Part shown: one piece after another, positions 25,991-47,249 of the stretch
Numbering within the stretch: position 1 is the stretch's first letter
Layout: the number at the start of each line of letters is the position of its first letter
Assembly: GCA_048938855.1 (NCBI GenBank)
Contig: JBHLLT010000002.1
Coordinates: forward strand, 256,001 to 320,000
DNA from: Promethearchaeota archaeon
GTDB lineage: Archaea; Asgardarchaeota; Lokiarchaeia; Sigyniarchaeales; SOKP01
Length of the DNA: 64,000 bases
Reading direction: 5' to 3'
The notes under the pieces: model-generated
Told to the model about the DNA's origin: nothing
Seen by the model: only the letters and a program-made list of their open reading frames with translations
The model's database searches: none
Program-made: the position numbers and the translations under genes

Positions 25991-26440
25991 CTAAATTTTA
26001 TCTAGAATAAATGAGGGTAACCGACCTTCATCAACCAGAATTTTTACTAAATTAGGCATACTATTCCATTGTTGAATAGCTAGATCAAATTCTTCTTCGG
26101 TAATGTCTTTAAATCGGCCTACTCCATATGTCAGCATGCTAATAGAAGATCCCAAAAGATTTTTTAATTTATTACATGGGAATTCATTGCATTGAGCGCA
26201 ACTTTCAAATCCTTTTTCCCGAGCACAAGGACGAACTTGACAATTCTTATCAGCTATTTTATTTCCTTTACTTTTACATCCATCACAAGCAACATTTTCC
26301 GCAGTATACATTTCATGGCCCAAATACTTCCTCCATGCGTTAACCAGTTTTTCTCGTAGTTTGATATCATCTGATCGAGCAGCACATAAATAGCAGTTAT
26401 ACCCACAATATCCAATCATTTTTTCTTTATCTTCACTCAT
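25991..26440 (-). CDS. DUF3795 Cys-rich protein
   Basis: YCGYNCYLC, CDGC, CQVRPC, CAQCNEFPC. Confidence 0.85.
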   Translation of the reverse strand: MSEDKEKMIGYCGYNCYLCAARSDDIKLREKLVNAWRKYLGHEMYTAENVACDGCKSKGNKIADKNCQVRPCAREKGFESCAQCNEFPCNKLKNLLGSSISMLTYGVGRFKDITEEEFDLAIQQWNSMPNLVKILVDEGRLPSFILDKI

Positions 26441-26573
26441 AAGATTAACACCTTAGAGGTAGCAATTAATATTTTTTTTAATATATTTTCAAAATTACTA
26501 GAATATGTATGCATATTATGTCAAATTGAGATATTAAAGCTATTAAACTGTAAGACTTAACTTTGAGAGAATT

Positions 26574-26960
26574 TTATATTAATTCTTTAAGTAATAAATT
26601 TAAATATACTTCTAATTGCGTCTTAATAAGATCATAATGAGTGAATTTCCCTTTTTTCCAACCCCTTATTATACCCGCATCTTCAAGTATTTTTAAATGG
26701 TGCGAAATAGATGGTTGCGACTCATCTAATGCTGCTTCTAATTCACAGACACATCTATCTTTTTCTTTTAGGATATTGAGGATAATCATTCGTTTCTTAT
26801 TTGATAAAGCATTCAAAAACTCAATCAAACTATTAATCCTTGATTCTTGAAATAAATTATCTCCTAATTTTCTTAGTTGTGTAAAATGAAGATCTACATT
26901 TTCTACATCTTCACATTTAATTAACTTATCCTTAATTTCAGTTTCATGTTCAATATCCAT
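26574..26960 (-). CDS. arsR: ArsR/SmtB family metalloregulator
   Basis: RCVCEL As(III)-binding motif, SQPSISHHLKIL; divergent from acr3; ATG at 26960 preferred to TTG 26987. Confidence 0.88.
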   Translation of the reverse strand: MDIEHETEIKDKLIKCEDVENVDLHFTQLRKLGDNLFQESRINSLIEFLNALSNKKRMIILNILKEKDRCVCELEAALDESQPSISHHLKILEDAGIIRGWKKGKFTHYDLIKTQLEVYLNLLLKELI

Positions 26961-27020
26961 TATAATCACTTTTCCTCTATTTTTCAAATATTATAAAGAA
27001 AGACAAATTTATAACAATTA

Positions 27021-27048
27021 ATTCAAATCAATAAATTTTTATTTGAAT
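27021..27048. promoter_or_regulatory. Candidate ArsR operator (inverted repeat)
   Basis: ATTCAAAT-N12-ATTTGAAT between divergent arsR and acr3. Confidence 0.5.
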
Positions 27049-27110
27049 AAAAATTTTATTATCTCAGAATCATTAAGATCAATAAATAATATAAATTAGT
27101 TGAGAAAGAA

Positions 27111-28193
27111 ATGAGTGAGGAAGAAAGTAGCACAATGATTGTAAAGGAAACAGAAGAAAATTTAACAGAAACAGAAGAAAAAGCTAAGGAACTTGGATTC
27201 TTTGAGAAATTTCTTACATTATGGGTTGGTCTATGCATTTTAATTGGAATTCTTCTTTCAATATATATCCCAGGTATAGGGCAAGTGTTTAATTCTTTTA
27301 CTATAGGCCAGATTTCAATACCGATAGGTATTTGCTTATTTTTAATGATGTACCCCGCTATGCTAAATTTACAGGTTTCAGAATTGAAAAAATTAGGTAG
27401 AAATCCGAAACCAATAATTCTGACGATTATATCTAATTGGTTAGTTGCTCCATTTGTTGGTTTACTTATGGCTCGTATATTCTTACAAGGAAGTGAACAA
27501 TTAATAGTCGCTGTAATATTATTAAGTTCAAGTCCATGCACTGCCATGGTTTTAGTCTGGGGATGGATGGCAAAAGGAAATCAAGAACAAAACGTGGTAA
27601 ATACAAGCTTAAATACAATCACAATAATATTTGGTTATGCTCCTATGGTTACGTTATTGACAGGTATTCAGAACATTCCAATTAATTGGATTCTTTTATT
27701 AGCATCAAGTTTCATATTTATTGGATTACCAATGTTGCTTGGAATACTAAGTAAAAGACTATTAGTATCAACTAAAGGTGAAGATTGGTTTAAAAATAAA
27801 TACCGACCTATCGTAGGAAAAGTATCAATCATCGCTCTCCTAACAACTCTGGTAGTACTTTTCTCAATGAATGGTGAGGTTCTAATCCAAAATCCAGATT
27901 TACTGTTATTGGTATCAGTTCCACTATTAGTCGGGTTTGTAATCGTAGTTGGATATAATATTTTGATAACTAAGCTTGCTAAATTGAAATATAAAGAAGC
28001 AGTCATTACAGTTATCATTGGTTCCTCCAGCCATTTCGAAATTGCTATTGCTACTGCCATTGCAATATATGGAATAGGTTCTATCGCGGCTTTAGGAACA
28101 ACAATGGGCCTTTTTTGGGAAGTTCCTGTAATGCTTTCAATTGTTTACTTGGGAAGATTCCTAAGAAAACGGGGATTTTGGAAATCAGAATAA
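27111..28193 (+). CDS. acr3: Acr3 arsenite efflux transporter
   Basis: FEKFLTLWV, MMYP, PCTAMVLVW, HFEIAIATA, EVPVM. Confidence 0.93.
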   Translation: MSEEESSTMIVKETEENLTETEEKAKELGFFEKFLTLWVGLCILIGILLSIYIPGIGQVFNSFTIGQISIPIGICLFLMMYPAMLNLQVSELKKLGRNPKPIILTIISNWLVAPFVGLLMARIFLQGSEQLIVAVILLSSSPCTAMVLVWGWMAKGNQEQNVVNTSLNTITIIFGYAPMVTLLTGIQNIPINWILLLASSFIFIGLPMLLGILSKRLLVSTKGEDWFKNKYRPIVGKVSIIALLTTLVVLFSMNGEVLIQNPDLLLLVSVPLLVGFVIVVGYNILITKLAKLKYKEAVITVIIGSSSHFEIAIATAIAIYGIGSIAALGTTMGLFWEVPVMLSIVYLGRFLRKRGFWKSE

Positions 28194-31543: not shown

Positions 31544-31951
31544 TTATTTTAAGGATGATATTTGCTTATATTGATCTTCTGAGACCTTATTTTTTACTAC
31601 TTCAAAAAGCTCTAGAAGTACATTATCGGGAGCTGCCGCCATAATATATTTCAAAGGACCAAAATCCTTTATCTTTTTAATGAATTGAAACCCTTTATCT
31701 TTCATATGTATTACTAGAGCTTCTAAATTATCAGTCTCAATACCCAAATGATGAATAGCACCCCTTCCTTGGTCTTTAGGAGCTTGATCATAAAAATTAA
31801 TTTTCGAACTTCCAATTGAAATCATTACATTTCTAGCTCCTGCCATTTTTAAATCAAATAATATTTCAGCCCCAAACATATCCTGATAAAATTTAATGCT
31901 AGTATCAAGGTTTGAAGCAAATAAATGCGCATGATGGAGTGTTGTTTTCAT
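31544..31951 (-). CDS. VOC (glyoxalase/bleomycin resistance) family protein
   Basis: LHHAHL..SIKFY, IHHLGI, PDNVLLELFE. Confidence 0.9.
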   Translation of the reverse strand: MKTTLHHAHLFASNLDTSIKFYQDMFGAEILFDLKMAGARNVMISIGSSKINFYDQAPKDQGRGAIHHLGIETDNLEALVIHMKDKGFQFIKKIKDFGPLKYIMAAAPDNVLLELFEVVKNKVSEDQYKQISSLK

Positions 31952-32019
31952 AAATTTTCCCTCTCAAACTTGTGAAATTAATGATATAAATACAAATGCA
32001 AGAAATTTAAAAAGTTATT

Positions 32020-33054
32020 TTAATATCGTTTCATTTTTTTTGGATATGCTTGAAAAGGAGTACGTGGTTCTTCAGAAATCCATTCTACATCTTTGTTTAT
32101 CTTGGAGAGTGATCTTAATAAATCAAAAGTTAACCAACGTGTAACTTGAGGGTGTTTTAAATAGTCCCATAACCCATATTTTCCTTGTTCAGATTTTATA
32201 AATGTAATAAGTTCATAAATCCTTTCATCATCAGTACTAACTCCGACTCTCCAACATAGATTTAATATGTGAGCAATATCAAATTTTGCCATAAAAGTTA
32301 TTCGTCCGATAGAACTTTCTAACCCAATAAGACGCGCAATCATAAAACCAAGATCAATTCTTATTTTAGATGTTGTCCCAAGTATGAGATCTAGAGCTCG
32401 TTTTGCCTCATTACTTTGACAACGCTTGGGATGATAAACAAAACAGCTAAGAACAGCTGTTGTACTTGATCGACAACCCCACCTTGAATGTGCAAGACGA
32501 CGATAACCTGCTATTCCTCCATAATTTCCTGCAGATATCCCTACAGGCCATGCGCCATCATCTAAGCGCTGCTCCAATAACCATTCAAATGCATTCTCAG
32601 TTCTATCATCCTTAGAATATCCACACATAACCAATCCTAAGAGTGGAATAGCGGTTTGAATAGGCATGATTTGGTATCCAATTTCTTCATCAGTTAACTC
32701 TTTCTTACCAGGCATTGGCCAAGAGCCATCTTCTTGCTGTTTTGAGAAAATAAATTCTGCTGCATTTTGCACCAATAAATAAGAAGAATCAAATCCGAGG
32801 TAACCAAGTCTTTGTAAAGCCATAGACGTTAATTGAATATTATCTTCATAAGTTATTTGAGTATTACCAAGAGAATCCCATGCTCCATTAGGTTTTTGAA
32901 GCTCGGATAAATTCTTTACAAGTTGATCTGATTCTCTAATTTCTGATAATTCTTGAACTTCTTCATCGTTCTTTTTAAGATTTAACAATTCAGTTAGAAC
33001 TAAATACCTTAAACAAGGTGAAGGATCAGTTAATAATAGTGGAATCCATGTCAC
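32020..33054 (-). CDS. Prenyltransferase/squalene cyclase QW-repeat alpha-barrel protein
   Basis: QKPNGAW, QQEDGSW, QRLDDGAW, QGKYGLW; no DxDD; start overlaps the upstream stop (GTGA). Confidence 0.8.
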   Translation of the reverse strand: MTWIPLLLTDPSPCLRYLVLTELLNLKKNDEEVQELSEIRESDQLVKNLSELQKPNGAWDSLGNTQITYEDNIQLTSMALQRLGYLGFDSSYLLVQNAAEFIFSKQQEDGSWPMPGKKELTDEEIGYQIMPIQTAIPLLGLVMCGYSKDDRTENAFEWLLEQRLDDGAWPVGISAGNYGGIAGYRRLAHSRWGCRSSTTAVLSCFVYHPKRCQSNEAKRALDLILGTTSKIRIDLGFMIARLIGLESSIGRITFMAKFDIAHILNLCWRVGVSTDDERIYELITFIKSEQGKYGLWDYLKHPQVTRWLTFDLLRSLSKINKDVEWISEEPRTPFQAYPKKMKRY

Positions 33055-36000
33055 ATTTCTCCCTCCAAAACTTTTTTAATATATGGTGCTATTGGTGTAT
33101 TTCGTTTCGCTATTTCTTCAGGAGGCCCTTTTGAAATAACCCGACCTCCTTTTGGTCCTGCACCAGGCCCTAGCTCTATAATCCAATCACATGATGCCAA
33201 GACATGAGGATGATGCTCAATAACTAATACTGTATGACCATTGTCAACCAAAAGTTGAAGAACATTAATTAAATTAGATATATCTTCTAAATGCTGACCA
33301 ATAGTTGGTTCATCTAAGATGTACAAGGTTTTTTTAATGGAGCTCTTAGATAATTCTTTTACTATCTTAAGTCTTTGAGCTTCACCACCAGAAAGTGTTC
33401 GGGCAGGTTGATTAAATCGCAAATATCCTAAACCTACTTTTTTAGCATAATCTAATTTTAATGAGATTGTCTTGAATTCTCTAAAAACATCATATGCTTC
33501 TTCTATTGTTAAATTATTTACTTGAGGTAAGGATACATCTTTAAAGTAAACTTGCCAAGCTTCAGCTTGATAACCCGATCCCTTGCAAATCTCACATGTT
33601 TCAATGATATCAGGAAGAAATCTCATATCAATTTTAATATAACCACGTCCCTTACAGATAGAGCATCTTTTAGCTAACTTCTTATAATCTAAACCTAGAT
33701 TTATAGCATCTTCAGTTCCTGCAAAGAGTTGTGTAATTAAACGATCTAATCCTAAAAATTTTAAAGGACTTCCTATCTTTTTTTTTGTTTGATCTATAAT
33801 TATAGTTTTAGACATTGCATTTTCAATTTTTTCGTATTTCCCAGGATCAACAGGTTCACGAGATACCGAGGTAGTATGCTTTATAGGAACTAATGCTCTA
33901 CCCAGTGTATCAATAATTAGTGTACTTTTTCCTGAACCTGAAACACCACATAGTCCTACCAATAAGCCATGAGGGATTTCAATTAGATCTCCTTTCAAAT
34001 TATTTTCTGTAGCACCATAGATTTTTAGCCATCTTTTTGGTTTTCGAGCTTTTCTAGATAATTTAAATTTCTTTTTTCCATTTAACCAATTTCCAGTTAT
34101 AGTATTAGATTTCTTTATTTCTTCTATAGTGCCTTTTGCTACTATTTTACCCCCATTTATTCCCGCTCCAGGGCCCATATCAATAATATAATCAGCTAAT
34201 TCCATAAACAATGGATCATGCTCAATAATGATAATATTATTACCCATATCACGTAATTTCATTAATATATCTAATAATGCTTGAAGTTCAGATGGATGTA
34301 AACCTCTTGAGGGTTCATCAAGTAAAACTGTTAATGATGATAATTCACTACCTAATAGTCCGGCCAATCGAATTCTTTGAGCCTCTCCAGCAGAAAGGCT
34401 TTCAGCAACACGATTTAAATTTATATATCCTAATCCTGTTTTAATTAAAAACTCCAATCGAACTAATATGATCTTTAGACTATTTTTTACAAACTGAGGA
34501 ACGTCATCCTCCATCCTAATATCCTTCAATAATGCATAGAGTTCATTTAGTGGTAGTTCACTCATTTGAAATATATTATATCCACCTATAGAAATCGCTA
34601 AATATTGATGACGCAATTTTGTTCCATTACATTGATCGCATATTTTTTTATCTGTATAAGTACCTCCCACATCCCAATCTCTTAACCAATGTTCATAAAA
34701 GCCTTGATATACAATTGTTCTTCTCGTAACTTGTCCCTTTTTATTCTCAAATTCTACATGCAATGGATTTTTATCTCCAAATAAAAATGCTTTTTGTGCT
34801 TCTTCTGTCATATTATTCCAAGCTGTAGAAAAAGGATCAAAAGAATAACGAGCGGCTAATGCTTGAACTATATAATAACCACCATTATGTGGTTTACATA
34901 GAAAACCTTTTGGAAAAAATCCTGGAGAATACATAGCGCCACTGCATAAAGGTTTTTCAGGATAAATTATTAGTTTTTTAGGATTGGGTACTTGAAATGA
35001 GCCTACTCCATGACATTTAAGGCAAGCTGCAGAATAATTGGTAGAAATGAAATGTCTTGGTTTCGCAAGAGGCGATTCAAAATTGCAATTGCTACAATAC
35101 CACCTTTCTTTCCGCTCCATAATCTGGTTACATTTAGGACAAAACTTATCTCCCATATAAGAAAATATATTGGCTAAATGAAGGGTCATATCAGTGATTC
35201 GTCCTATATTATTTCGAACGTTGAAAAACCACCCTTGGATAATTTTTTCTGGGATAATTAATGCGGTAATACCTAAACCTTGAATATTTTCTACTAATGC
35301 TTCAGTGCTTTCTTTTGTACTTTGTCTCTCATACATTGATAATGTTTCTAAATATCTACGTCTAGCTTCTGTTTCAAGAGTATCTATAATCAAACTTGAT
35401 TTACCTGAGCCAGAGACTCCTGTAATTACGATAAATTTATTCTTTGGTATTTTAACACTCACATTCTTTAAGTTATGGATATGAGCGTTTTGAATAATTA
35501 TACTTTCTGAACTTTTAGGCTTTATTCTTTCTTTTTTAGTAGAAGGAAAAAATTTCTCTTCAGATTTTAAAGCTTGAGCTGTAAGAGATTCGTCTATATT
35601 TATAAATTCATTTAAAGGACCTTGATACATTATATTTCCGCCATTAGGTCCTGACCCTGGACCAAGATCTACAACCCAATCAGCAGCTTTAATTATATCT
35701 ATATTATGTTCTATTATAACAATGGTCGCTCCAGCTTGAATCAATTTATTTAAGATTATTAATAAACCGGCCAAATCTTGAGGGTGTAATCCTGTCGAAG
35801 GCTCATCAAGTATAATTAATTGATCTTTCAGAGAATTCTTACCAAGATATTTGGTTAGTTTAATTCGTTGAGCTTCGCCCCCCGATAATGTTGGAGAGGG
35901 TTGGCCCAAAGAAAGATATCCTAATCCGATCTCATTAAGTGTGTTTAACATATGCTTTACAGAATTAAGATCTCCAACAGATAATCTCGTTTCAGTTTCA

Positions 36001-37922
36001 AATATTTTTCCAATATCTGAAATTGGAAGATCATAGAATTCAGCAATAGAAAGGTTTTTATCTCCAAATTTAACCTTTTCAGCAAGTATCTCTTCAGAAA
36101 ATCTTTGACCATTACAATCTGGACAAATAATCCAATTAGATGGTAAAAATCTCATTTTGATCTCAAGAGCACCCATTCCATTACACGTGGGACATTGTCC
36201 TTCTGGTGTATTGAATGAATAATAGGTAGGTTTAAATCTAGTAGCTTTACCAAACAATTTTCTGATATTATCAGCAAGCTTAGTATAAGTAGCAGGATTT
36301 GATCTGGGATTTTTCCCTATAGGTCCTTGATCTACTATAATGGACTTCACATTTGGATTATTAATTTTATCACAACCTATAGGTTTTTTCTGTTTTAGTG
36401 TAGCAAATAATACTTCTTCTAGTAATGTACTCTTACCTGAGCCAGATACGCCTGTAATAACAGTTAAATGGTTTAAAGGAATTTTAACGTTAATATTTTT
36501 CAAGTTATGCATGTGGGCATTTTCAATTGTTATAAATGATTGAGGCGCAGTTCTATGTTTAGGTATTTTCACTTTTTCTCTTAGACTAAAGAATTTACCT
36601 GTAGGCGTATCTGCTTTCCATAACTCCGCGGGGTTTCCTGTAAAAATAATTCTACCTCCCTCGTTTCCTGCACCCGGGCCAATATCAATAGCAAAATCTG
36701 CATGCATAGCAGCTTGACGGTCATGTTCAATATAAATTACTGGACCAACAAAGTTCTGAAGTACAGGTAATAATCTTGCAACATCAGCGGGATGTTGACC
36801 TATTGTGGGTTCATCAAGTATGTGAGTAATATCTTCTAATTCACTCAGTAAAGCAATAGCGAGCTGGACTCTTTGAGATTCACCTCTTGATAAAGTTGGA
36901 GACACTCGATCTAGTGTTAAGTAATCCAACCCTACCGAATTTAATGCTATTAGACGTCTCTTTATTTCATGTAATATTCTAATTGTAATAGGTAATTCTT
37001 CATTTGAAAAATAAGCGATTAATTCACCTACAGATTTCTTGAGTATTTCAGGAAATAACAATCCCTCCCAAGTAACATTAGATGCAATTGGATAATACCC
37101 TGTTTCATTACAAATCTTACACCCCTTTCCATTACAATGTGGGCAATTCTTATTAAAATACTTAGGTTCTAGCTCCCCAAACCAAGTACCACATTCAACA
37201 CATGCAGGTATCCGAGAGATGAGAGAATTTATCGGCTTACCTTCAATTATTAATGAATTCGCATTTAAAGAAGAAGCATATTGAACAATAGCTCTAATCT
37301 CATCAATATTACTATCTTTATTTACTTGTCCAATTTGAATTTGAATATCATGTGATTCTTTTGAATTTAATTCCTTCGATAATGATTTTCCATCGACAGT
37401 TATGGCTTCAGGGCCAAACTCTTTTTTTAAAAGCTTAATCAAGGTTCGATGACTCCCTTGTACTTTTTTCATCAATAAAGCAGATATTTTCAATGGCTCT
37501 TTTTTCTTTAAAGCATCTAATTTAGCAACAATTTCATCTTCTTTTAAGAAAGTAAGCTTATTCCCGCAAATATGACATTTTCTTTCACCAAATCTAGAAT
37601 ACAAGATTTTCAATAGAGGAATAAGACCAACCGCAGATGCTAAAATGGAATTAGGGTTTCGGTTTAATACATTCTGACTAAGTGCTACTGTAGGTCCTAA
37701 ACCTGAGATGGAATTAATTTTAGCAGGATTCAATTTCAGATCATCTTTGCTGACTGAAAATGCTTCTAAAAATCTACGTCGCGCTTCCTTGTATAATGTG
37801 TCAAAAATAAGAGAAGTTTTTCCTGATCCAGAAACTCCCGTAACTACTGTGAGTCCATCCTTTATATCTACATCGATGTTTTTTAAATTATTTTCCTGTG
37901 CTCCACGAATTTTAATTTGCAT
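33051..37922 (-). CDS. uvrA: Tandem-duplicated UvrA-like ABC ATPase (four NBDs)
   Basis: Four GVSGSGK Walker A motifs, signatures LSRGE/LSGGE/LSAGE/LSGGE, four LDEP, multiple CxxC zinc modules. Confidence 0.9.
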   Translation of the reverse strand: MQIKIRGAQENNLKNIDVDIKDGLTVVTGVSGSGKTSLIFDTLYKEARRRFLEAFSVSKDDLKLNPAKINSISGLGPTVALSQNVLNRNPNSILASAVGLIPLLKILYSRFGERKCHICGNKLTFLKEDEIVAKLDALKKKEPLKISALLMKKVQGSHRTLIKLLKKEFGPEAITVDGKSLSKELNSKESHDIQIQIGQVNKDSNIDEIRAIVQYASSLNANSLIIEGKPINSLISRIPACVECGTWFGELEPKYFNKNCPHCNGKGCKICNETGYYPIASNVTWEGLLFPEILKKSVGELIAYFSNEELPITIRILHEIKRRLIALNSVGLDYLTLDRVSPTLSRGESQRVQLAIALLSELEDITHILDEPTIGQHPADVARLLPVLQNFVGPVIYIEHDRQAAMHADFAIDIGPGAGNEGGRIIFTGNPAELWKADTPTGKFFSLREKVKIPKHRTAPQSFITIENAHMHNLKNINVKIPLNHLTVITGVSGSGKSTLLEEVLFATLKQKKPIGCDKINNPNVKSIIVDQGPIGKNPRSNPATYTKLADNIRKLFGKATRFKPTYYSFNTPEGQCPTCNGMGALEIKMRFLPSNWIICPDCNGQRFSEEILAEKVKFGDKNLSIAEFYDLPISDIGKIFETETRLSVGDLNSVKHMLNTLNEIGLGYLSLGQPSPTLSGGEAQRIKLTKYLGKNSLKDQLIILDEPSTGLHPQDLAGLLIILNKLIQAGATIVIIEHNIDIIKAADWVVDLGPGSGPNGGNIMYQGPLNEFINIDESLTAQALKSEEKFFPSTKKERIKPKSSESIIIQNAHIHNLKNVSVKIPKNKFIVITGVSGSGKSSLIIDTLETEARRRYLETLSMYERQSTKESTEALVENIQGLGITALIIPEKIIQGWFFNVRNNIGRITDMTLHLANIFSYMGDKFCPKCNQIMERKERWYCSNCNFESPLAKPRHFISTNYSAACLKCHGVGSFQVPNPKKLIIYPEKPLCSGAMYSPGFFPKGFLCKPHNGGYYIVQALAARYSFDPFSTAWNNMTEEAQKAFLFGDKNPLHVEFENKKGQVTRRTIVYQGFYEHWLRDWDVGGTYTDKKICDQCNGTKLRHQYLAISIGGYNIFQMSELPLNELYALLKDIRMEDDVPQFVKNSLKIILVRLEFLIKTGLGYINLNRVAESLSAGEAQRIRLAGLLGSELSSLTVLLDEPSRGLHPSELQALLDILMKLRDMGNNIIIIEHDPLFMELADYIIDMGPGAGINGGKIVAKGTIEEIKKSNTITGNWLNGKKKFKLSRKARKPKRWLKIYGATENNLKGDLIEIPHGLLVGLCGVSGSGKSTLIIDTLGRALVPIKHTTSVSREPVDPGKYEKIENAMSKTIIIDQTKKKIGSPLKFLGLDRLITQLFAGTEDAINLGLDYKKLAKRCSICKGRGYIKIDMRFLPDIIETCEICKGSGYQAEAWQVYFKDVSLPQVNNLTIEEAYDVFREFKTISLKLDYAKKVGLGYLRFNQPARTLSGGEAQRLKIVKELSKSSIKKTLYILDEPTIGQHLEDISNLINVLQLLVDNGHTVLVIEHHPHVLASCDWIIELGPGAGPKGGRVISKGPPEEIAKRNTPIAPYIKKVLEGEM

Positions 37923-37934
37923 ATTTTAACAATA

Positions 37935-40442
37935 CTATTTAATTAAGTATGGGCCCGTATTGGATCCTTTATTTAACATTATTTCTTCAGGATTACCATA
38001 TGCAATTATTTTTCCTCCTTTAGGACCACCCTCAGGACCCAATTCGATGATATAATCACAATATGATAAAATTTCAGGATCATGTTCAATAATTAGAACT
38101 GAATTTCCCTCTTGAACCAATTTTTCTAGTAGCTCTATTAGTTTTATTGCATCATAAAATGACAGACCAACTGTAGGTTCATCTAAAATGTAAAGAACTT
38201 TGCCTTTTCTAATTTTACCTAATTCTTTAGCTAATTTTATTCGTTGGGCTTCCCCTCCACTTAAAGTAGGAGCAGGTTGTCCAAGTTCGATATAACCCAT
38301 TCCAATTTCATCTAAAATTTTTAATACTTTCGAGATATTTTCTTGTGTTTTAAATAATTCTTTAGCTTCGTTAACAGTCATCCCTAGCACATCAGATATT
38401 GATTTCCCTTTATATTTAACTTCTAAAATTTCTGGTTTATATCTTAATCCTTTACATTCTTTACAAGGTATTTCAAAGCTGGTGAGGAATGATACTTGCA
38501 GGTCTTGAACGCCTTGACCTTTACAAGCTGGACAACGACCTCGGTCTGAATTGTAAGAAAAATGTCCAGCAGTAAACTTTCGTTTTTTAGCTTCTACAGT
38601 CTTGGCAAATAAATTTCTAATTTTATCCCATATTCCTATAAATGAACTTGGAGTAGAAGTTCGAACTCGAGATATAGGTTTTTGATTGACAACAATGACA
38701 CCGCTAATTTTTTCCCAACCTTCCACTCGTCCAGAATAATCCAAAAAATCCTCATTATTTTCTTCTTCTTCTTCACCGTTTTCTTCCTTCTTCTCCTTCT
38801 GTATTTTTGTTCCTCTTTTAAAGAACGGTTTTACTAAAGGTACTAATGTATCTAAAACGAGAGAACTTTTACCAGAACCAGAAACTCCAGCAATACCCAC
38901 CATTAGACCTAAAGGAAATTTAACACTTACATCTTTTAAATTGTTAGTATTTGCATTTTTTAGAATTAGATATTTTGTGTTCTCATCTATATCCCTTCTT
39001 GATTCTGTAGATTTTTTCGGTAATTGAATGCTTCCTGCAAGAAATTGGCCTGTATAAGATTTTTTAGTTTTGACAATTCCTTCTAAAGTACCTTGATATA
39101 CGATTTCTCCACCATCTATTCCTGCCCCTGGGCCGATATCAATTATTTCATCAGCAATATCAATAAACCTCTTATCATGTTCAACAACAATAATAGTATT
39201 TCCTAAATCTTTTAATTGTTTCAAAATTTCAATTAACGAATCCTTTTCACGTTCATGCAAACTCATACTAGGTTCGTCTAAAATATAAATTAAAGAATCA
39301 AGCCCACCATCTAGATGAGTCATTAGTGATAATCTTTGAAGCTCACCACCACTTAGTGTTGGTAATGTTCTGTGTAAATGCAAGTAATTTAATCCAACAT
39401 TAACCATTCGTTTTAGGCTTTGCAAAATACTTTTCCTAATCGATTTTCCCTGAGGATTTTTAACATCTTGATTAGTAAGGTTTTCTAGAAATAAAATTAA
39501 ATCATCAACTGGCATCATTGCTAATTCTCCTATATGTTTTCCTCCAATTTTTATTTCACGAGCTTGCTCATTAATTTTATATCCATTACACTCCTCACAT
39601 TTCTTTTTTGTCATAAAATTATTATGAATCTTGTGCCTCCTATAAGCACTCTTACTTTCTGTTAAAGCTCTTTTTATATGAGGAATCACACCCTCAAAGA
39701 CACGTTCTAACTCACCAGTAAAAGTCTTAGATTCCCATTGAAATCTGAGTTTCTTCCCACTGCCATATAGAAATACCTGCTTTACTTCATCTGGCAAATC
39801 CTTAAAGGGCGTATTTATGTCAAAATTGTAAAATTTAGGTAATTGTTCTACAAATCTAATTTGATCTGCAAAAACAGCAGAACCTGCTTTTGTAATTTGT
39901 ATAAGATTTTTATTGTAGTCTTGAACAATCATTTCTTCAGTAAGGAGCATTTTATAACCTCTTCCTTTACATTCTAAACACATCCCCGAAGGTTCATTAA
40001 AAGAAAAATGCTTGATTTGCTTACGTTCTACCACCATTCCACAAATATCGCACTCTAAAGTGCTTTGATTTACAGGTTCCTTACAAATTGGACAGATTAA
40101 GATTCCTTCGGTAACATATAGCATCCGTAATAAACCATATATTCCTGTTTTAGTTCCCACAGTTGATCGCGGATTAAAAACACGAGTTGTTCTTTGCTCA
40201 ACTGCAACAGTTGGGCTTAATCCATCAATCAAATCGAAAGGTTTTTCATCATCAAATTTAGGTGGAAAACCAATTGATTGAAGATATCTATTCATACCCT
40301 CATCAAAGATAATATCAAAAGCTAAACTTGACTTTCCTGATCCAGAAACTCCTGTTATAAGAATTAATTTCCCTTTGGGAATATCTACATTGATATTCTT
40401 TAAATTATGTATTCTAGCCCCTCTAACTTTTATAACATCCAT
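37935..40442 (-). CDS. uvrA: UvrA-like ABC ATPase, class II/DrrC type (no UvrB-binding domain)
   Basis: Two NBDs; NPRSTVGT; CPIC is followed after only about 10 aa by CDIC and FSFN. Confidence 0.9.
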   Translation of the reverse strand: MDVIKVRGARIHNLKNINVDIPKGKLILITGVSGSGKSSLAFDIIFDEGMNRYLQSIGFPPKFDDEKPFDLIDGLSPTVAVEQRTTRVFNPRSTVGTKTGIYGLLRMLYVTEGILICPICKEPVNQSTLECDICGMVVERKQIKHFSFNEPSGMCLECKGRGYKMLLTEEMIVQDYNKNLIQITKAGSAVFADQIRFVEQLPKFYNFDINTPFKDLPDEVKQVFLYGSGKKLRFQWESKTFTGELERVFEGVIPHIKRALTESKSAYRRHKIHNNFMTKKKCEECNGYKINEQAREIKIGGKHIGELAMMPVDDLILFLENLTNQDVKNPQGKSIRKSILQSLKRMVNVGLNYLHLHRTLPTLSGGELQRLSLMTHLDGGLDSLIYILDEPSMSLHEREKDSLIEILKQLKDLGNTIIVVEHDKRFIDIADEIIDIGPGAGIDGGEIVYQGTLEGIVKTKKSYTGQFLAGSIQLPKKSTESRRDIDENTKYLILKNANTNNLKDVSVKFPLGLMVGIAGVSGSGKSSLVLDTLVPLVKPFFKRGTKIQKEKKEENGEEEEENNEDFLDYSGRVEGWEKISGVIVVNQKPISRVRTSTPSSFIGIWDKIRNLFAKTVEAKKRKFTAGHFSYNSDRGRCPACKGQGVQDLQVSFLTSFEIPCKECKGLRYKPEILEVKYKGKSISDVLGMTVNEAKELFKTQENISKVLKILDEIGMGYIELGQPAPTLSGGEAQRIKLAKELGKIRKGKVLYILDEPTVGLSFYDAIKLIELLEKLVQEGNSVLIIEHDPEILSYCDYIIELGPEGGPKGGKIIAYGNPEEIMLNKGSNTGPYLIK

Positions 40443-40455
40443 TATGAGACTCCTC

Positions 40456-41127
40456 CTATTTTATTTTTTGTAAAATATAAGTTGTACATTCAAATCCAGT
40501 TGGATTTTTCTTTAACATTTCTATTTCATTTATAAATTGTTTGATTTGTTTAATCTTATCAATATTATCATACTTCTTACGTAAAACATTGATCCTTTTT
40601 TCTAATGGGGCATAATATTCATTCCACCAGCATTGGTAAGCCCATGGTATTTGATTCATTAGTTTAAAACCAAAATTTGGGAAGTGTTTAAGTTTCCTAT
40701 TTGCCCAGTCATTAGCTTCTCCCGAAATCAAATAACCATCTATTTTAAGTAGCCTATTACATTCAATTAAAGCCCTCTTGAGATCAAGAAGATGTATAAC
40801 CCCCATATCCCATATAATATCGAACATTTCATCTTCAAACTTTGTATCATATACAGAGCGATTAAAAATTTTAATTCTATCTGAAAGACCTTTTTGGTTA
40901 ATCTTATTCTCTAACTTATTTAACGCAACCTGGTCAATATCAATCCCGGTTATTTTTCCATTAGTTAATCTGGCTAATTCTAGGGTAGGTAAACCAGTAC
41001 CGCATCCAATGTCCAGAATGCGAGGATTATCTAGTTTTGGGATGATTTCAAATACTTTTTTGGTATATCTAAGAAAAACGGCTCGAAGACCTTCAGCATC
41101 TAATTCTTGTAATATTTCTACTTCCAT
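40456..41127 (-). CDS. Class I SAM-dependent methyltransferase
   Basis: ILDIGCGTG, GIDID, FDIIW. Confidence 0.9.
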   Translation of the reverse strand: MEVEILQELDAEGLRAVFLRYTKKVFEIIPKLDNPRILDIGCGTGLPTLELARLTNGKITGIDIDQVALNKLENKINQKGLSDRIKIFNRSVYDTKFEDEMFDIIWDMGVIHLLDLKRALIECNRLLKIDGYLISGEANDWANRKLKHFPNFGFKLMNQIPWAYQCWWNEYYAPLEKRINVLRKKYDNIDKIKQIKQFINEIEMLKKNPTGFECTTYILQKIK

Positions 41128-41155
41128 TTATAATTCAAACCTCCATTAAAATTTC

Positions 41156-41584
41156 CTATTTTATATTTGGATTGATTATATTACCACAATCAATGCATTC
41201 CGAATCGTGAACACAAATTTCACCGCCACATTCTGGGCAAGTATACAGTTTAACTTGCTCTTGAAGCCAATTATCAACCCCTATAGCTTCAATTCTTCTC
41301 AAATTATCGATCAGATTTACAGAATACCGTTCTTGATATGTATGATCAAGCTTTTCTAATTTATCACACGGAAATGTATCACACTCATAACAAAATTCTA
41401 ACTTGTTTTTTAATAGTGCTGGACAATCTCGTCTTATGAAGGCACATTTCTTATTCCTAATTCTACACCCTTCACAACCTTGTGTATAACCTCTTTTGGC
41501 TAATAAACCTTTTTTTCTTAATATATACTGCCGACAGGTTCCACAGTATAGGCCACACGGTGCAGCTAAACTTTTATCTACCAT
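41156..41584 (-). CDS. DUF3795 Cys-rich protein
   Basis: PCGLYCGTC, CEGC, CYECDTFPC, C-terminal CPECGG..CIDC. Confidence 0.85.
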   Translation of the reverse strand: MVDKSLAAPCGLYCGTCRQYILRKKGLLAKRGYTQGCEGCRIRNKKCAFIRRDCPALLKNKLEFCYECDTFPCDKLEKLDHTYQERYSVNLIDNLRRIEAIGVDNWLQEQVKLYTCPECGGEICVHDSECIDCGNIINPNIK

Positions 41585-41594
41585 TTTTTACAAC

Positions 41595-42731
41595 CTAATT
41601 TTTGATTTTTGATAATTTTTTAAATGCTTCCTCTTCTAGGGTAAGAATATTAAGCACAATATTATGCAGCTCCCCAAAATCCACATGATTTAAACAATCA
41701 TTTTTATATTCATCACCCGCATTTTTCAACATTTCTGCAATATGAGTCCAACTTTGAGCAGATTTACTAATTAATGGAATACATTCTTCGAGTATGCTAA
41801 ATTCAATTGAATTCCATGCTCTAGGACCATTTTTTAATTCAGGATGTACTAATAATTCCTCTAAGAAATCTTTATACAGCTTTCGGAATGAACCACCTCC
41901 CGTTCCCCATGTTTCTATGTATCCATGTGTAAGCTCAAACATCAATCGCGCTAGAGAAATTTCTTTTCCTTTAGAGTTTGTAATAGTTTTATTTAACTTT
42001 TCTTCCCATTTGAACAAAGAATATGCAAATTGTTTTAACCCTTGAATACCATTAGTGTTCATCGAGGGGCGCAACATGTTACTTACTACTTTTTGAATTG
42101 CTAACTTAACGCCTGCAGCTAAGGGGGGATGTTTTCCATTCGGTCTACGTGTCATAGAGAATTGAACATTTGCAGGGTGCATAAATTTAGGACCATAGGT
42201 CGAACTCCTCGCATTCTTAAGTATATCAATACGAACCTCTTGAAAACCTTCAAACTCAGTATCACCAATGAATGCGGATCCCTTCTCATCATTATATCCT
42301 CCCAGAACTACTGTATGCCCTCCAAAATGAGCCTTATCCATATTCTCATCGAAACCTTCATAAGGCATATAAGCAATATCCACTCTTAATAATAATGGAA
42401 TATCTTGATCTACCATGTTTTTAGACTCCTCCCAGGCTTTATCTGCACTCGTGAAGGCTTGTTTTCTTAATGTAATACCTAACAATCGGCATGCCAAACT
42501 ATTTGGTTCAATAGTTCCTTGCTTACCTCCTAAGAAGAATGGGATATCAGATTCAGGTATAAAGGAAGTCTGACCCGAAGTATCATAAAATCCAAATCCC
42601 ATCGTCGCATCTAAACCAAAAGCCATAGGTTCAGACATCGGAAATCCATAATACTCGAATAAATCCCGCATTGATGAGGATTCACAATGATGGCCTATGC
42701 GATGAATAAAATCTTTAACCATGTGTTTCAT
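41595..42731 (-). CDS. BtrH-N / DUF4872 family protein (papain-like Cys-His fold)
   Basis: HCESS, SEPMAFG, HFGGHTVVLGGY, GTGGGSFRKLY. Confidence 0.8.
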   Translation of the reverse strand: MKHMVKDFIHRIGHHCESSSMRDLFEYYGFPMSEPMAFGLDATMGFGFYDTSGQTSFIPESDIPFFLGGKQGTIEPNSLACRLLGITLRKQAFTSADKAWEESKNMVDQDIPLLLRVDIAYMPYEGFDENMDKAHFGGHTVVLGGYNDEKGSAFIGDTEFEGFQEVRIDILKNARSSTYGPKFMHPANVQFSMTRRPNGKHPPLAAGVKLAIQKVVSNMLRPSMNTNGIQGLKQFAYSLFKWEEKLNKTITNSKGKEISLARLMFELTHGYIETWGTGGGSFRKLYKDFLEELLVHPELKNGPRAWNSIEFSILEECIPLISKSAQSWTHIAEMLKNAGDEYKNDCLNHVDFGELHNIVLNILTLEEEAFKKLSKIKN

Positions 42732-42749
42732 TTCATAATTACCTCATTT

Positions 42750-43358
42750 TTAATTATAATCGTCAGGACCAATATTTCCCTCAACTTTTTTCACTTCATT
42801 CAATACCATTTCAAAGAATTCCTCATCAGTTTCTAGAATCTTAATTGGATGTATGAAAAGTCCTGTTACATTAATTGACATGCCTGAAAAATTCGATAAC
42901 ATATCATCTAACATATTTTTCAATTCACTTCTATGTGTTTTTATAACTTTTAATGCATGAGAAAAAGCTTCAATTTGCTCTTCAAGACTGAGAATTGGAA
43001 ACATTGAAAAAGCAACATAAAAATCCTCATCCATTTTCCCAACATAATTATATAAAACATCATAAACCTTCTTTTTTAATACATCATAACCAAATTTAGT
43101 TATTATATAATTTTTTCTTGTCCTATTATCGATTTCTTCTTCAAAACTCTCTACTAGATCATCATTTTCTAATCTATCTAAGGTTCTGTATATAGTGGAG
43201 AAGGAAAAATCCACACCGATATTTGTCCAATCTCTCATTCCTCGTTCTTCAATTCTTTTGTTAATATCATAAGCATGGCATCCTCCTTCATGCATTTTTT
43301 CATTAATTAATCCCAAAATAACAAATGCTCGATGTTTTAAAGTATAATTTTCAGCCAT
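42750..43358 (-). CDS. PadR family transcriptional regulator
   Basis: ILGLI..HAYDI, STIYRTLDRLE, RKNYIITKFG. Confidence 0.9.
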   Translation of the reverse strand: MAENYTLKHRAFVILGLINEKMHEGGCHAYDINKRIEERGMRDWTNIGVDFSFSTIYRTLDRLENDDLVESFEEEIDNRTRKNYIITKFGYDVLKKKVYDVLYNYVGKMDEDFYVAFSMFPILSLEEQIEAFSHALKVIKTHRSELKNMLDDMLSNFSGMSINVTGLFIHPIKILETDEEFFEMVLNEVKKVEGNIGPDDYN

Positions 43359-43384
43359 GGTAATTCATTATTATTTGCATTTTT

Positions 43385-43460
43385 TAAAAAATGACAATAT
43401 AAGAACAAATATGTAAACACCATATTTAAATATTTGCAAAAAATAAAAAATGACAATATA
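43385..43460. promoter_or_regulatory. Two exact 17-bp direct repeats flanking a TATA-like element upstream of padR
   Basis: TAAAAAATGACAATATA at 43385-43401 and 43444-43460, TATTTAAATA between them. Confidence 0.6.
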
Positions 43461-44048: not shown

Positions 44049-45191
44049 TCATATGTTTATATGAATGACTTTTGCTGGAGGAAAACCGTTAAAATGGGTC
44101 GCAGAAGCATTAGTATAAGCCCCAACATTTTCAGAATACAGTAGATCTTCAACATCTAAATCGGGTAACCATTCATTGAGTGAAATTTTATCTAGTGCAT
44201 CACATGTTGGGCCTACAACTGCAGATTCTTTAAGTACACCTTCCTTAAATGCTTTGAAATGATATTGAATATGGTCGAAAATTGTACCTGAAAAAGTATT
44301 ATATACACCATCGTTAACATAATAATATGTTTTATCATTTCTAATTGCTTTACCATTAATTTCAACTATTGCTACAGCACCAGTTGCAACGAAGAAACGT
44401 CCTGGCTCTGCTATTATTTTCATATTGGAGGAATTAAAATATTGTGAAATTTTATTGTTAATTATTTCAGCTAAGGATTCAAAAGATGGAACATTTTCAT
44501 CATAAGGGGCGGGAAATCCTCCACCTATATCTAAAAAAGTTAATTTTTGATCTATCTCTTTTGCCTGTTCAAAAATGTTATAAGCAATTTGAAATGCTTG
44601 GTTATAATTATCAAGATTACTACATTGACTACCAACATGAAAACTTAATCCTTCAACGTCAAATCCTGCCTTTTTAGCATACTTTATTAAGTCTATACAA
44701 ATCTTAGGGTTTGCCCCAAACTTAGTAGAGAGTTCCACAACTGAACCAGTGTTAGGAACATCAACTCTTAATATTAAACGGTTATTTTTGCAATATTTAG
44801 CAATCTTATCAATTTCTATATAGTTATCAAAAGTCATCCGGATAGAATATTCATTAAGTTTTTTTAATGAGTCAATTCTCTTTACAGGATTAGCATAAAT
44901 TACCTTTTCATTGATAAAAGCTTTTTTATCCTCATGATTTCCTTTAATAGTATCATATACAATCATAAGTTCTTCCCAAGAAGCAACATCAAATCCAGCA
45001 CCTTCTTTATAGAGAGTTTCTACTATTTTTAACTCAGGATTAGCTTTAATCGCATAAAATGGTTTTACACGAGAAAGATATTTACAGAATTTGTGATAGT
45101 TTGATCTTATTAAATTATGATCGATAACAATCAAAGGAGTACCATTTTTATTTACCATATCTAACAAAGTTGATTTATCAATCATTTTCAT
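44049..45191 (-). CDS. Fold-type III PLP ornithine/lysine decarboxylase
   Basis: FYAIKAN, FDVAS, KFG, FHVGSQ, LDIGGG, EPGRF, GPTCDALD, GAYT. Confidence 0.9.
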   Translation of the reverse strand: MKMIDKSTLLDMVNKNGTPLIVIDHNLIRSNYHKFCKYLSRVKPFYAIKANPELKIVETLYKEGAGFDVASWEELMIVYDTIKGNHEDKKAFINEKVIYANPVKRIDSLKKLNEYSIRMTFDNYIEIDKIAKYCKNNRLILRVDVPNTGSVVELSTKFGANPKICIDLIKYAKKAGFDVEGLSFHVGSQCSNLDNYNQAFQIAYNIFEQAKEIDQKLTFLDIGGGFPAPYDENVPSFESLAEIINNKISQYFNSSNMKIIAEPGRFFVATGAVAIVEINGKAIRNDKTYYYVNDGVYNTFSGTIFDHIQYHFKAFKEGVLKESAVVGPTCDALDKISLNEWLPDLDVEDLLYSENVGAYTNASATHFNGFPPAKVIHINI

Positions 45192-45481: not shown

Positions 45482-46255
45482 CTATCCACGGAATCTTCTT
45501 TCTAACGTTTTAGTATGCAATATGATAGCTAAAAATAAAAAACCAAAACCGAAAACTATCAAGATACCAACATCAAATAGTACTCCTAATGGTCCAAATA
45601 CACTAGTACTTCCCAAACCAATATTTATAATATCAATGAAATATGTTAATGGAGATATGAAAACTATTGGTGATAAAGTTATTGGCATGAATAAGGGACT
45701 TATAAACACTAATGGAAATTTAATGAGAACTGTAAATACCATTGTGTTCCCAGGGGTATCTGTGGAAGGAACTGACAATATAAGACTAAAGCACGCGAAA
45801 GCTAAACCAGCGATTACCATACCAGTTATAACATAGAAAAGATTTATTGTTAATTCCGCTGACAGAAAAATCATCCCAATTATTAATGGAATTGATGAAA
45901 ATATAATTCCATAAATAAAAGTACTCCAAACACTCCCGATTAATATCGTCTTTATCGATATAGGGCATGTTACTAATCTTTCGAATGTTCTCCTCATTGT
46001 CTCCCAAGGAAATACTATAGGTCCAATTGAAGTTGATGTTAAAAATGTGATCATTGCCATTAGACCAGAAATTAAATAGATTGGTTGTACACTCCTCCCC
46101 AGAGTCAGAGCTATGAAAAGTATTATTGGAAAAAGAATTCCTTGAATTAAAACAGGAGGTTTATTGTAATAGATTTTTAAGTCTTTTTTTGTAATTACAA
46201 ATGATCTCTTTAACTGAATGATAAAAGTGCTCATCTTGTTACGTTCTAAAATCAT
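45482..46255 (-). CDS. ABC-2 type exporter permease
   Basis: Six TM helices, TFERL, SPLTY; start probably 46255 or 46234 rather than 46282. Confidence 0.85.
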   Translation of the reverse strand: MILERNKMSTFIIQLKRSFVITKKDLKIYYNKPPVLIQGILFPIILFIALTLGRSVQPIYLISGLMAMITFLTSTSIGPIVFPWETMRRTFERLVTCPISIKTILIGSVWSTFIYGIIFSSIPLIIGMIFLSAELTINLFYVITGMVIAGLAFACFSLILSVPSTDTPGNTMVFTVLIKFPLVFISPLFMPITLSPIVFISPLTYFIDIINIGLGSTSVFGPLGVLFDVGILIVFGFGFLFLAIILHTKTLERRFRG

Positions 46256-46256
46256 C

Positions 46257-47249
46257 TCACTCAATTTTAACACCTCTCTCAATAATTTTTAAAAATGCTT
46301 CCTCTAATTTAGGTTCATGAGTACTAAGATGTTTTATCTTTATATTTTTGGATTTAATATAATCAATTAATTCGAAGATGGAATTATGGATATCTTCGAC
46401 GATAATATGTACACCTTCTTGAGTCTTTTGAACCTCGCTAACACTATGGAGATTTTTGATTTCTCCTAAATTTACTCCATTTTCAAAATTTAAATCTATT
46501 GCTTGATAATCCTGTGTTATTTTCCTTATATTTTCTGGCGTGTCTAGACTAATTATCCTTCCATGATTGATTATTGCAATTCTATCACATAATTCATTAG
46601 CAACTTCCATATCATGCGTCGTCAAAAAGATTGTCATCCCGTTTTCGTTGTATTCTTTTATCAATTGTTTTATTATCTTTGCAGATTGAACATCAAGACC
46701 AGATGTAGGTTCATCAAGGAAGAGTATTTTTGGATTAGTCATCAAAGCCATACACAATAGCAATCGCTGTTTCATCCCTTTTGAGTATTTTTTTGCTTTA
46801 AGAGTTCGTTTCTCATACAAATCAAATTGTTTCAGTAAACTCTCTGCCTTTATAATCCGTTCTTTTTTAGGTATACCATAAATTTCTCCAATAAACATTA
46901 AATTATCCCATCCTGAAAAGGAAATGTATACATTTGCCATTTCAGGTACATTTCCAGTAACTTGTTTGACAGTGATTTGACTTTTCCATGCATTTAAACC
47001 AAAAATTTTTATTTCTCCTTGAGTTGGTTTTAAAACGCCAGTCATCATCCGAATTGTAGTAGTTTTACCGGCACCATTTGGCCCCAAAAATCCAAATATT
47101 TCTCCCTCTTTCACTTCAAAGCTAATATTATCGACAGCCCGGATGATACTTATTTTCATTTGAGGACCATTTGGCCCCAATTTTCCATGCTTTGCCCTTC
47201 TAGGCGGTTCAAAATGCTTAGATAAATTACTTACAACAATAGCACTCAA
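46257..47249 (-). CDS. ABC exporter ATP-binding subunit
   Basis: GPNGAGKTT, YSKGMKQR, FLDEPTSGLD, TTHDM. Confidence 0.92.
   Translation of the reverse strand: MSAIVVSNLSKHFEPPRRAKHGKLGPNGPQMKISIIRAVDNISFEVKEGEIFGFLGPNGAGKTTTIRMMTGVLKPTQGEIKIFGLNAWKSQITVKQVTGNVPEMANVYISFSGWDNLMFIGEIYGIPKKERIIKAESLLKQFDLYEKRTLKAKKYSKGMKQRLLLCMALMTNPKILFLDEPTSGLDVQSAKIIKQLIKEYNENGMTIFLTTHDMEVANELCDRIAIINHGRIISLDTPENIRKITQDYQAIDLNFENGVNLGEIKNLHSVSEVQKTQEGVHIIVEDIHNSIFELIDYIKSKNIKIKHLSTHEPKLEEAFLKIIERGVKIE

Follow-up and report, generated by a model that had tools for sequence, protein, structure and literature searches.

Known UvrA proteins either initiate UvrABC repair or work alone as ATPases that confer drug resistance. 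The class II proteins Ecm16 and DrrC provide UvrBC-independent, ATP-dependent resistance to intercalators (PMC9328131; PMC10413001), and UvrA-like genes mark biosynthetic gene clusters (BGCs) for DNA intercalators in actinobacteria (PMC10413001). Here, we describe a padR-led operon of an Asgard archaeon that encodes three UvrA protomers, located in a 64-kb stretch of DNA (the window; G000:C49:256001-320000) from a genome of 3.95 Mb with ~30% G+C. The operon is a fusion of two modules, separable in that each also occurs without the other, plus a VOC gene at its end. Module A consists of a 1623-aa tandem UvrA (double UvrA) and a translationally coupled 344-aa toroid protein, and Module B of padR, a BtrH-like gene, optional DUF3795 and methyltransferase genes, and a separate 835-aa UvrA (U835). 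The literature searched contained no description of this system and nothing relevant on tandem, class III, or Asgard UvrA, DUF3795, or DUF4872. Our preferred reading, whose chances we place slightly below even, is an inducible, UvrB-independent system that would clear DNA-bound toxins or adducts, meaning DNA-binding or alkylating small molecules.

The eight genes are co-directional on the minus strand and span 31544-43358, with intergenic gaps, taken from the coordinates in the 5' to 3' direction from padR, of 18, 10, 28, 13, 12, -4, and 68 nt. Every domain call (PadR, BtrH_N with DUF4872, DUF3795, methyltransferase, the UvrAs, PF13243, and VOC) is backed by Pfam and NCBIfam, and the open reading frames (ORFs) and domain searches agree with an initial annotation of this stretch in gene coordinates, spacing, and domain content. 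No terminator-like intergenic site was predicted inside the operon, and the spaces between its genes are too short for a small ORF. The same gene order was found again in more than 20 Asgard metagenome-assembled genome (MAG) loci, and the closest relatives of the window proteins are all labelled Promethearchaeota or other Asgard lineages. Such an arrangement is far beyond chance. The initial annotation had presented the operon as a single eight-gene system; the neighborhood search upholds the conserved order, which is not unique to this genome, but replaces the single system with two modules. The G+C content is slightly higher in the operon (0.32-0.34) than in the flanks (0.26-0.30) over window positions 32000-42000.

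Linkage within Module A is especially strict. The GTG start of the toroid gene overlaps the stop of the double UvrA (GTGA), and each double-UvrA context that was read, from Asgard, Chloroflexi, and metagenome contigs, has the toroid gene immediately 3' with a 4-nt overlap. A search starting from the toroid yielded 80 loci in named MAGs, which belong to archaea (Promethearchaeota, Hermod-, Hod-, and Thor-labelled archaea, and Bathyarchaeia) and to bacteria (Anaerolineae/Chloroflexia, Aminicenantes, Zixibacteria, KSB1, and one Gammaproteobacterium). The toroid gene lies directly 3' of the double UvrA on the same strand in 75/75 loci with upstream DNA, the remaining 5/80 ending at a contig edge and hence standing outside this count. 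Neighbor clustering gave no third gene that recurs outside Asgard; one cluster common to non-Asgard neighborhoods was considered as a third partner and set aside, as it holds generic ABC ATPases at variable positions. Two apparent UvrA-toroid fusions were also set aside: at P0125 (L104:5963-11870; annotated as 1289 aa), the double UvrA is split into several ORFs, probably by an indel artefact, and P0124 lies on a 2.8-kb fragment.

The host genome has a canonical uvrA (959-aa open frame) adjoining uvrB on contig C34, with uvrC on contig C22, and no uvrB or uvrC lies within the 64-kb window. The operon UvrAs are therefore extra paralogs beside the housekeeping genes of nucleotide excision repair (NER) rather than the sole UvrA genes, and the initial annotation had correctly found the window free of uvrB and uvrC. 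The domain anatomy of the three protomers was determined by alignment with the housekeeping UvrA. U835 has no UvrB-binding domain and keeps the insertion domain, matching TIGR00630 at positions 2-130 and 252-923 only; with both ABC modules retained and their two ATPase sites intact, it is a class II UvrA by architecture. This layout recurs in the C-terminal protomer of the double UvrA (dC), while the N-terminal protomer (dN) shows the reverse: an insert at ~aa 120-240 is retained, identified as PF17760, the UvrA interaction (UvrB-binding) domain, and the insertion domain is entirely absent. The canonical class I layout, with UvrB-binding and insertion domains in one protomer, is thus found in none of dN, dC, and U835. 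Six CxxC motifs occur in every protomer; Walker A, LSxGE, Walker B, and H-loop are intact at all six ABC sites of the window, and the four ATPase sites are all intact in 22/22 double UvrAs from archaea and bacteria. Of six double UvrAs tested, five have PF17760 above the Pfam cut-off, three non-Asgard-type loci (one from a Chloroflexi MAG) among them. Class II architecture consequently fits U835 but not the double UvrA as a whole, where dN keeps PF17760 and has lost the insertion domain.

Comparison with described UvrAs sharpens these differences. U835 and dC resemble Ecm16, DrrC, MtrX, TrsM, and D. radiodurans UvrA2 in having no UvrB-binding domain while keeping the insertion domain, ATPase sites, and zinc modules, and U835 is, like the class II self-resistance proteins, an extra copy beside a housekeeping UvrA. 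It differs from them in forming its own Asgard-specific, long-stemmed clade outside any BGC and in being constantly paired with a BtrH-like enzyme, a pairing not found described in the literature searched. The double UvrA shares with canonical UvrA2-UvrB2 the ABC-ATPase, zinc-module, and DNA-binding architecture as well as PF17760 (in dN), and its tandem fusion mimics the head-to-head dimer; however, its protomers are covalently joined and each is minus a different accessory domain, giving an asymmetric pseudo-dimer, and its obligate neighbor is an alpha/alpha toroid and not UvrB, a pair that persists where no uvrB was found. The Chlamydia-type duplicated UvrA (PRK00635, a 1809-position model) is likewise of double length and matches the 1623-aa protein at 873 bits, but this score is far below the PRK00635 cut-off of 3054. 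Among other UvrA arrangements, a Thorarchaeota-labelled genome carries three full-length canonical-type UvrA genes beside its double UvrA (G003:C4:104920-112552 and G003:C5:71951-74713), two of them in tandem right after uvrB. A stand-alone 830-aa Aminicenantes UvrA (L121:6456-8948; G004:C537) has the dN-like combination of a UvrB-binding region and no insertion domain; as a relative of dN it was rejected, being closer to canonical UvrA and having no toroid nearby.

These architectures bear on the possibility that the operon provides accessory damage sensors for ordinary NER, in which the double UvrA would use its single UvrB-binding-type domain to load UvrB of the host at special kinds of lesion, and the remaining genes would be incidental. 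Such a role would agree with the above-cut-off PF17760 match of dN, with the double UvrA scoring above the NCBIfam UvrA equivalog cut-off, and with the presence of uvrB in most double-UvrA hosts, the window genome included, uvrC accompanying it in this genome and most hosts. Yet uvrB was absent from 6/6 Bathyarchaeia genomes that keep the double UvrA-toroid pair (all MAGs, whose incompleteness is a caveat; the gene of one record is interrupted by a run of N), and in 2 of these 6 the double UvrA is the only UvrA-family match, with no canonical uvrA. In one of these genomes (G002/L054), the gene aligns across the PF17760-type region. U835 and dC, moreover, have no UvrB-binding domain, and the strict linkage to toroid and BtrH-like partners is left unexplained by an NER role, which we consider improbable.

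The origin of the protomers was addressed with a maximum-likelihood tree of 66 UvrA units (IQ-TREE, LG+G4, with Shimodaira-Hasegawa-like approximate likelihood ratio test [SH-aLRT] support; DrrC and Ecm16 not included). The dN and dC sequences form two clades (100 each) that lie as sisters on one side of a branch supported at 95, so that the double UvrA arose when an ancient protein duplicated internally and its halves then underwent reciprocal domain loss. Both events preceded its spread to archaea and bacteria. In the dN and the dC half alike, Loki-type sequences are monophyletic, and Thor, Bathyarchaeia, and bacterial sequences interleave, which indicates that transfers happened; the tree gives them no direction and hence lends nothing to the acquisition from anaerobic bacteria that had initially been proposed. 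U835 forms a separate clade (100; stem 0.84), weakly sister (SH-aLRT 80) to plasmid-borne class II UvrAs from Streptomyces, Latilactobacillus, and Haladaptatus.

The toroid protein (PF13243, 45.6 bits vs a cut-off of 26.1) was modeled with a mean predicted local distance difference test score (pLDDT) of 84.8 as a single (alpha/alpha)6 barrel with QW-type repeats, and both repeats and fold place it in the QW-repeat alpha/alpha-toroid superfamily. In sequence, its profile matches the QW repeats of squalene-hopene cyclase at E 4e-20; in structure, it matches squalene-hopene cyclase with a VIA Z of 15, then terpene cyclases and thioester domains. Given that the structural matches are at fold level only (TM <=0.47, Z <=15 among many toroids), the function of the toroid cannot be read from them. 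The (alpha/alpha)6 architecture with QW-type repeats is shared with terpene cyclase/prenyltransferase toroids and TED domains, but the operon protein differs in being a single 344-aa barrel with no thioester motif, whose conserved residues are for the most part Arg, Asp, His, and Cys; neither its sequence nor the conserved columns of a 50-sequence alignment show DxDD, the motif of class II terpene cyclases. Mean column identity across these 50 sequences is 63%, and the family is compact, with ~70 representatives at E <=1e-30 among 1.84 billion proteins before a drop to generic cyclases. Residues 183-198 form a conserved basic loop of low model confidence (GYRRxAHSRWGCRSxT). A second toroid subfamily was also observed, with ~26% identity to the main one, an hhalign probability of 97.9%, and no basic GYRR...WGCRS loop (L122:5866-6882; L123:7218-8210; L028:890-1885; L086:11187-12077; L076:1234-2124); it lies within Module B in some Asgard loci and directly 3' of the main toroid gene in two Anaerolineae loci.

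Module B is Asgard-specific and is also found alone. The best 120 homologs of U835 are all at least 75% identical, and each named one bears an Asgard label. Among 400 Asgard species genomes, 89 carry U835 orthologs (81 of these belong to the family of the window) and 104 carry the toroid, with differing distributions. Within the genus of the window, both are found in 28 genomes, U835 alone in 9, and the toroid alone in 1; genus g12 has U835 in 28/42 genomes and the toroid in 6/42, and family f19 has the toroid in 16/19 genomes and U835 in none. Seven gene orders of Module-B-only loci (Table 1) reveal a constant core of the BtrH-like gene and U835, usually with padR, the BtrH-like gene adjoining the U835 ortholog in 7/7. 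DUF3795 is present in the Module B loci L122-L124 and L128 and absent from L125-L127; its product is Cys-rich, with CGLYCGTC, CEGC, and CYECDTFPC motifs and a C-terminal CPEC...CIDC ribbon. The methyltransferase is of a small-molecule/UbiE-like type, with all NCBIfam matches below their cut-offs. The VOC protein has His and Glu at positions typical of metal ligands, and its gene, an Asgard-specific add-on, was clustered 3' in the same orientation at 14 Asgard loci and at no non-Asgard locus.

The BtrH-like protein is predicted to be a papain-like Cys-His-Asp enzyme of the CtaG/CcbD/AziU3/BtrH fold. Specifically, its model (pLDDT 89) has AziU3/U2, CtaG, and CcbD as best Foldseek matches (E 1e-9 to 1e-7; TM 0.53-0.61, normalised to the model), and across 19 sequences C16 and H139 are invariant and D157 nearly so. 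With CtaG, BtrH, AsbE, CcbD, and AziU3/U2 it shares the bipartite fold (papain-like N domain, helical C domain) and the triad, but it is only ~12-16% identical to them, has no carrier protein or biosynthetic context, and is linked to a UvrA ATPase. The characterised CtaG/BtrH-type enzymes are biosynthetic transacylases with carrier-protein donors, and the family relative AsbE has a role in the biosynthesis of petrobactin (PMC12865890). In one relative (L016:3733-5160), an N-terminal HNH nuclease domain of ~100 aa, read from its HNH and CxxC motifs, is fused to the BtrH-like protein, the sole such fusion among the loci examined.

With such relatives, the operon could be a cryptic biosynthetic or tailoring cluster with self-resistance, as the initial annotation had offered as an alternative: the BtrH/CtaG-type enzyme, methyltransferase, terpene-cyclase-like toroid, and VOC protein would build or modify a DNA-binding metabolite from which the UvrAs protect the producer. 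The closest BtrH-like folds are indeed biosynthetic (AziU3/U2 of azinomycin, CtaG, and CcbD; PMC12865890), polyamine-synthesis genes lie nearby, and intercalator BGCs in actinobacteria are marked by UvrA-like genes (PMC10413001). However, no scaffold-forming enzyme, carrier-protein, or precursor gene was found in the operon or within ~10 kb, and the gaps are too short to hide a small ORF. The conserved cores, in addition, comprise a UvrA plus one partner only, and the toroid has no DxDD of class II cyclases. This alternative appears very improbable.

The same enzyme fold also allows an alternative excision or DNA-protein-crosslink repair of endogenous damage, in which the UvrAs would find bulky lesions or trapped proteins, the papain-like enzyme would trim the adduct, the toroid would replace UvrB, and a nuclease would come from elsewhere or from a fused HNH domain. 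The HNH fusion in L016 and the intact papain-like triad are in line with this, as is Module A being the sole UvrA system in Bathyarchaeia genomes with no detected uvrA or uvrB; a UvrA-paralog operon has also been tied to stress resistance in P. gingivalis (PMC3747172). Nevertheless, the HNH domain occurs in just one locus among those examined, the conserved core holds no nuclease, and the patchy distribution is unusual for a core repair pathway. The PadR-type repressor, small-molecule-type methyltransferase, and VOC protein better fit a xenobiotic response, and overall we view repair of endogenous damage as unlikely.

The padR product has a PadR-family winged helix of the long subfamily (PF03551, 38.8 bits vs a cut-off of 27), and its orthologs head the cluster in L016, L017, L122-L125, and L128. 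Two copies of TATTTGCA-N12-TGACAATA, each an imperfect 28-bp palindrome, precede padR at a spacing of 59 bp; 14 nt separate the end of the proximal copy from the padR ATG, and the sequence between the copies is A/T-rich and TATA-like. These are the only two matches of the pattern in the window, although at least two matches also arose in 23/100 shuffles, so that the count alone is weak and not significant. The exact pattern has no match in the other loci, and L016 and L017 carry different palindromes ~22 nt upstream of padR. Domain and upstream palindromes together suggest a PadR-family repressor with putative binding sites, in keeping with the PadR-led operon of the initial annotation.

An anti-virus or anti-plasmid defence was also weighed, in which UvrA-like ATPases would sense foreign or modified DNA, the methyltransferase would mark self, and the Cys enzyme or toroid would act as effector. 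PADLOC does match operon proteins to mad3, mad8, and mad2 of MADS, the distribution is patchy as for accessory systems, and one relative has the HNH fusion. The housekeeping UvrA, used as a control, matches mad3 and mad8 equally well (2e-81 and 2e-36), however, and MAD3 is described as a P-loop NTPase that pairs with a Toprim-like nuclease and is related to OLD nucleases (PMC13662399). The mad2 match of the methyltransferase covers only profile positions 281-398 of 492, and this protein fits small-molecule families and not DNA methyltransferases. MADS identity was rejected on this control and because only mad2, mad3, and mad8 were matched, with no mad6 or mad7, mad6-8 being mandatory in the published MADS model. 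PADLOC is silent on the toroid, BtrH-like, DUF3795, PadR, and VOC proteins, there are no recurrent defence neighbors, the chromosomal context (HD, SBF-ArsR-DUF3795, SMC) is shared with relatives, and UvrA is not mentioned in an Asgard defensome paper. Taken together, these points make defence quite improbable, marginally more so than a role in NER. As a separate observation, the PADLOC models PDLC04135 (mad3) and PDLC04140 (mad8) match any UvrA, including the housekeeping one, at E 1e-36 to 1e-116, which puts UvrA genes at risk of being miscalled as parts of MADS.

The features that favor an inducible response to compounds that bind or alkylate DNA are padR at the head of the operon, a methyltransferase of small-molecule type, the VOC protein, and detoxification-type neighborhoods, one relative having DinB, nitroreductase, beta-lactamase, and ABC-2 exporter genes nearby and the present locus a DrrA-like ABC-2 exporter 2 kb upstream; the patchy, accessory distribution of toroid and U835 among Asgard genomes was counted on the same side. 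From this we infer activities, substrates, UvrA-partner contacts, and regulation along the following lines. PadR would keep the operon off until an inducer binds. The two halves of the double UvrA may pair within one chain into a pseudo-dimer whose four ATPase sites all work, with a single UvrB-binding-type domain in the N half and a single insertion domain in the C half. The toroid would stand in for UvrB as a dedicated partner and would accept or process whatever the ATPase detects on DNA, or else verify the site. U835 would act like DrrC and Ecm16 through ATP-driven recognition and clearing of ligand-distorted DNA, the BtrH-like Cys-His-Asp enzyme might hydrolyse or transacylate the released compound or adduct, and the methyltransferase, DUF3795, and VOC proteins would be optional modifiers. 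The system would in this way combine ligand stripping with hydrolysis, methylation, and sequestration.

Several points weigh against such a clearing system. To our knowledge, no toxin is known for these sediment archaea, and co-transcription of the eight genes is suggested by their spacing only. U835 appears not to be a close relative of DrrC and Ecm16: in phmmer, class I structures score 676 bits with it, D. radiodurans UvrA2 (2vf7) 511, and Ecm16 (7sh1) 451, and the link to class II proteins in the tree has a support of only 80. Conservation within the double UvrA is lowest in the PF17760-type domain (0.48 vs 0.67-0.78 across 22 sequences) and the toroid is very conserved, a poor fit to a tight interface between the two, and where UvrB is present, as in most hosts, the double UvrA could hand over to it instead. 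The conserved toroid residues are mostly charged (R, D, H, and C), unlike those of a hydrophobic ligand cavity. Finally, neither the operon proteins nor the flanking genes yielded a carrier-protein family that could supply a donor of the kind used by CtaG/BtrH enzymes.

The operon is flanked by housekeeping and transport genes (PAN, an HD protein, SBF-ArsR-DUF3795, SMC, an Orn/Arg decarboxylase, a BpsA-AdoMetDC fusion, and an ABC-2 exporter). Downstream synteny (HD, SBF-ArsR, SMC) is common to relatives, which argues for vertical inheritance in this lineage rather than a recently mobile island. Sharing the strand of padR and 2 kb upstream of it is an ABC-2 exporter pair (45482-47249, minus), its ATPase carrying a DrrA1-3_C domain (DrrAB-like), and an ABC_tran/ABC-2 pair is also found near the module in L022. 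The Orn/Arg decarboxylase and BpsA-AdoMetDC fusion are polyamine genes that adjoin the operon (window 44049-45191 and 48061-49485), and in a Loki relative the BpsA-AdoMetDC fusion gene directly abuts the module (L022:7261-8703). On the other side, window positions 25991-28193 hold the SBF transporter, ArsR (HTH_5), and a second DUF3795 paralog, then an unannotated 416-aa ORF and SMC, an order kept in L016 and partly in L022. The features are collected in Table 1.

Table 1. Operon features with their window coordinates, and gene orders of loci carrying Module B only (MT, methyltransferase).
Feature	Position	Strand	Basis or gene order
padR, 202 aa	42750-43358	-	PF03551; first gene of operon and of Module B
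BtrH_N + DUF4872 protein, 378 aa	41595-42731	-	Pfam, both above cut-offs
DUF3795 protein, 142 aa	41156-41584	-	PF12675
Class I S-adenosylmethionine-dependent methyltransferase, 223 aa	40456-41127	-	PF08241 + PF13649
U835, 835-aa class II-architecture UvrA	37935-40442	-	TIGR00630, alignment, motifs
Double UvrA, 1623 aa	33051-37922	-	Pfam/NCBIfam
dN, N-terminal protomer of double UvrA (aa 1-806)	35505-37922	-	alignment, motifs, PF17760
dC, C-terminal protomer of double UvrA (aa 807-1623)	33051-35504	-	alignment, motifs
Toroid (QW-repeat) protein, 344 aa	32020-33054	-	PF13243
VOC/glyoxalase-fold protein, 135 aa	31544-31951	-	PF00903; 3' end of operon
Putative PadR operator, two copies	43372-43399 + 43431-43458	-	sequence pattern
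Module-B-only locus 1			padR-BtrH-(toroid-like)-DUF3795-BtrH2-MT-U835
Module-B-only locus 2			padR-BtrH-(toroid-like)-MT-DUF3795-U835
Module-B-only locus 3			padR-BtrH-DUF3795-U835
Module-B-only locus 4			padR-BtrH-U835
Module-B-only locus 5			BtrH-U835-BtrH2
Module-B-only locus 6			BtrH-U835
Module-B-only locus 7			padR-BtrH-DUF3795-MT-U835

A bolder proposal, possible but doubtful in our judgment, is that the tandem UvrA and toroid constitute an undescribed, ancient, UvrB-independent DNA-surveillance machine of archaea and bacteria, the toroid taking the post-recognition step (for example, ligand capture or the opening of an alkylating warhead or adduct), and that together with the BtrH-paired class II UvrA they may represent a broader type of system in which a UvrA has a non-UvrB effector of its own. 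To the described roles of UvrA, this locus adds two further lineages, each with a fixed non-UvrB partner, one pair of which spans archaea and bacteria. If these partners act on what UvrA finds, they would represent a new route from recognition of a lesion or ligand to its resolution, and a covalent, asymmetric UvrA pseudo-dimer would be a natural tool to separate the roles of the UvrB-binding and insertion domains. If true, the clearing of DNA-bound toxins by these modules would also be a pointer to unknown genotoxic chemistry in the anoxic sediments where Asgard archaea occur.

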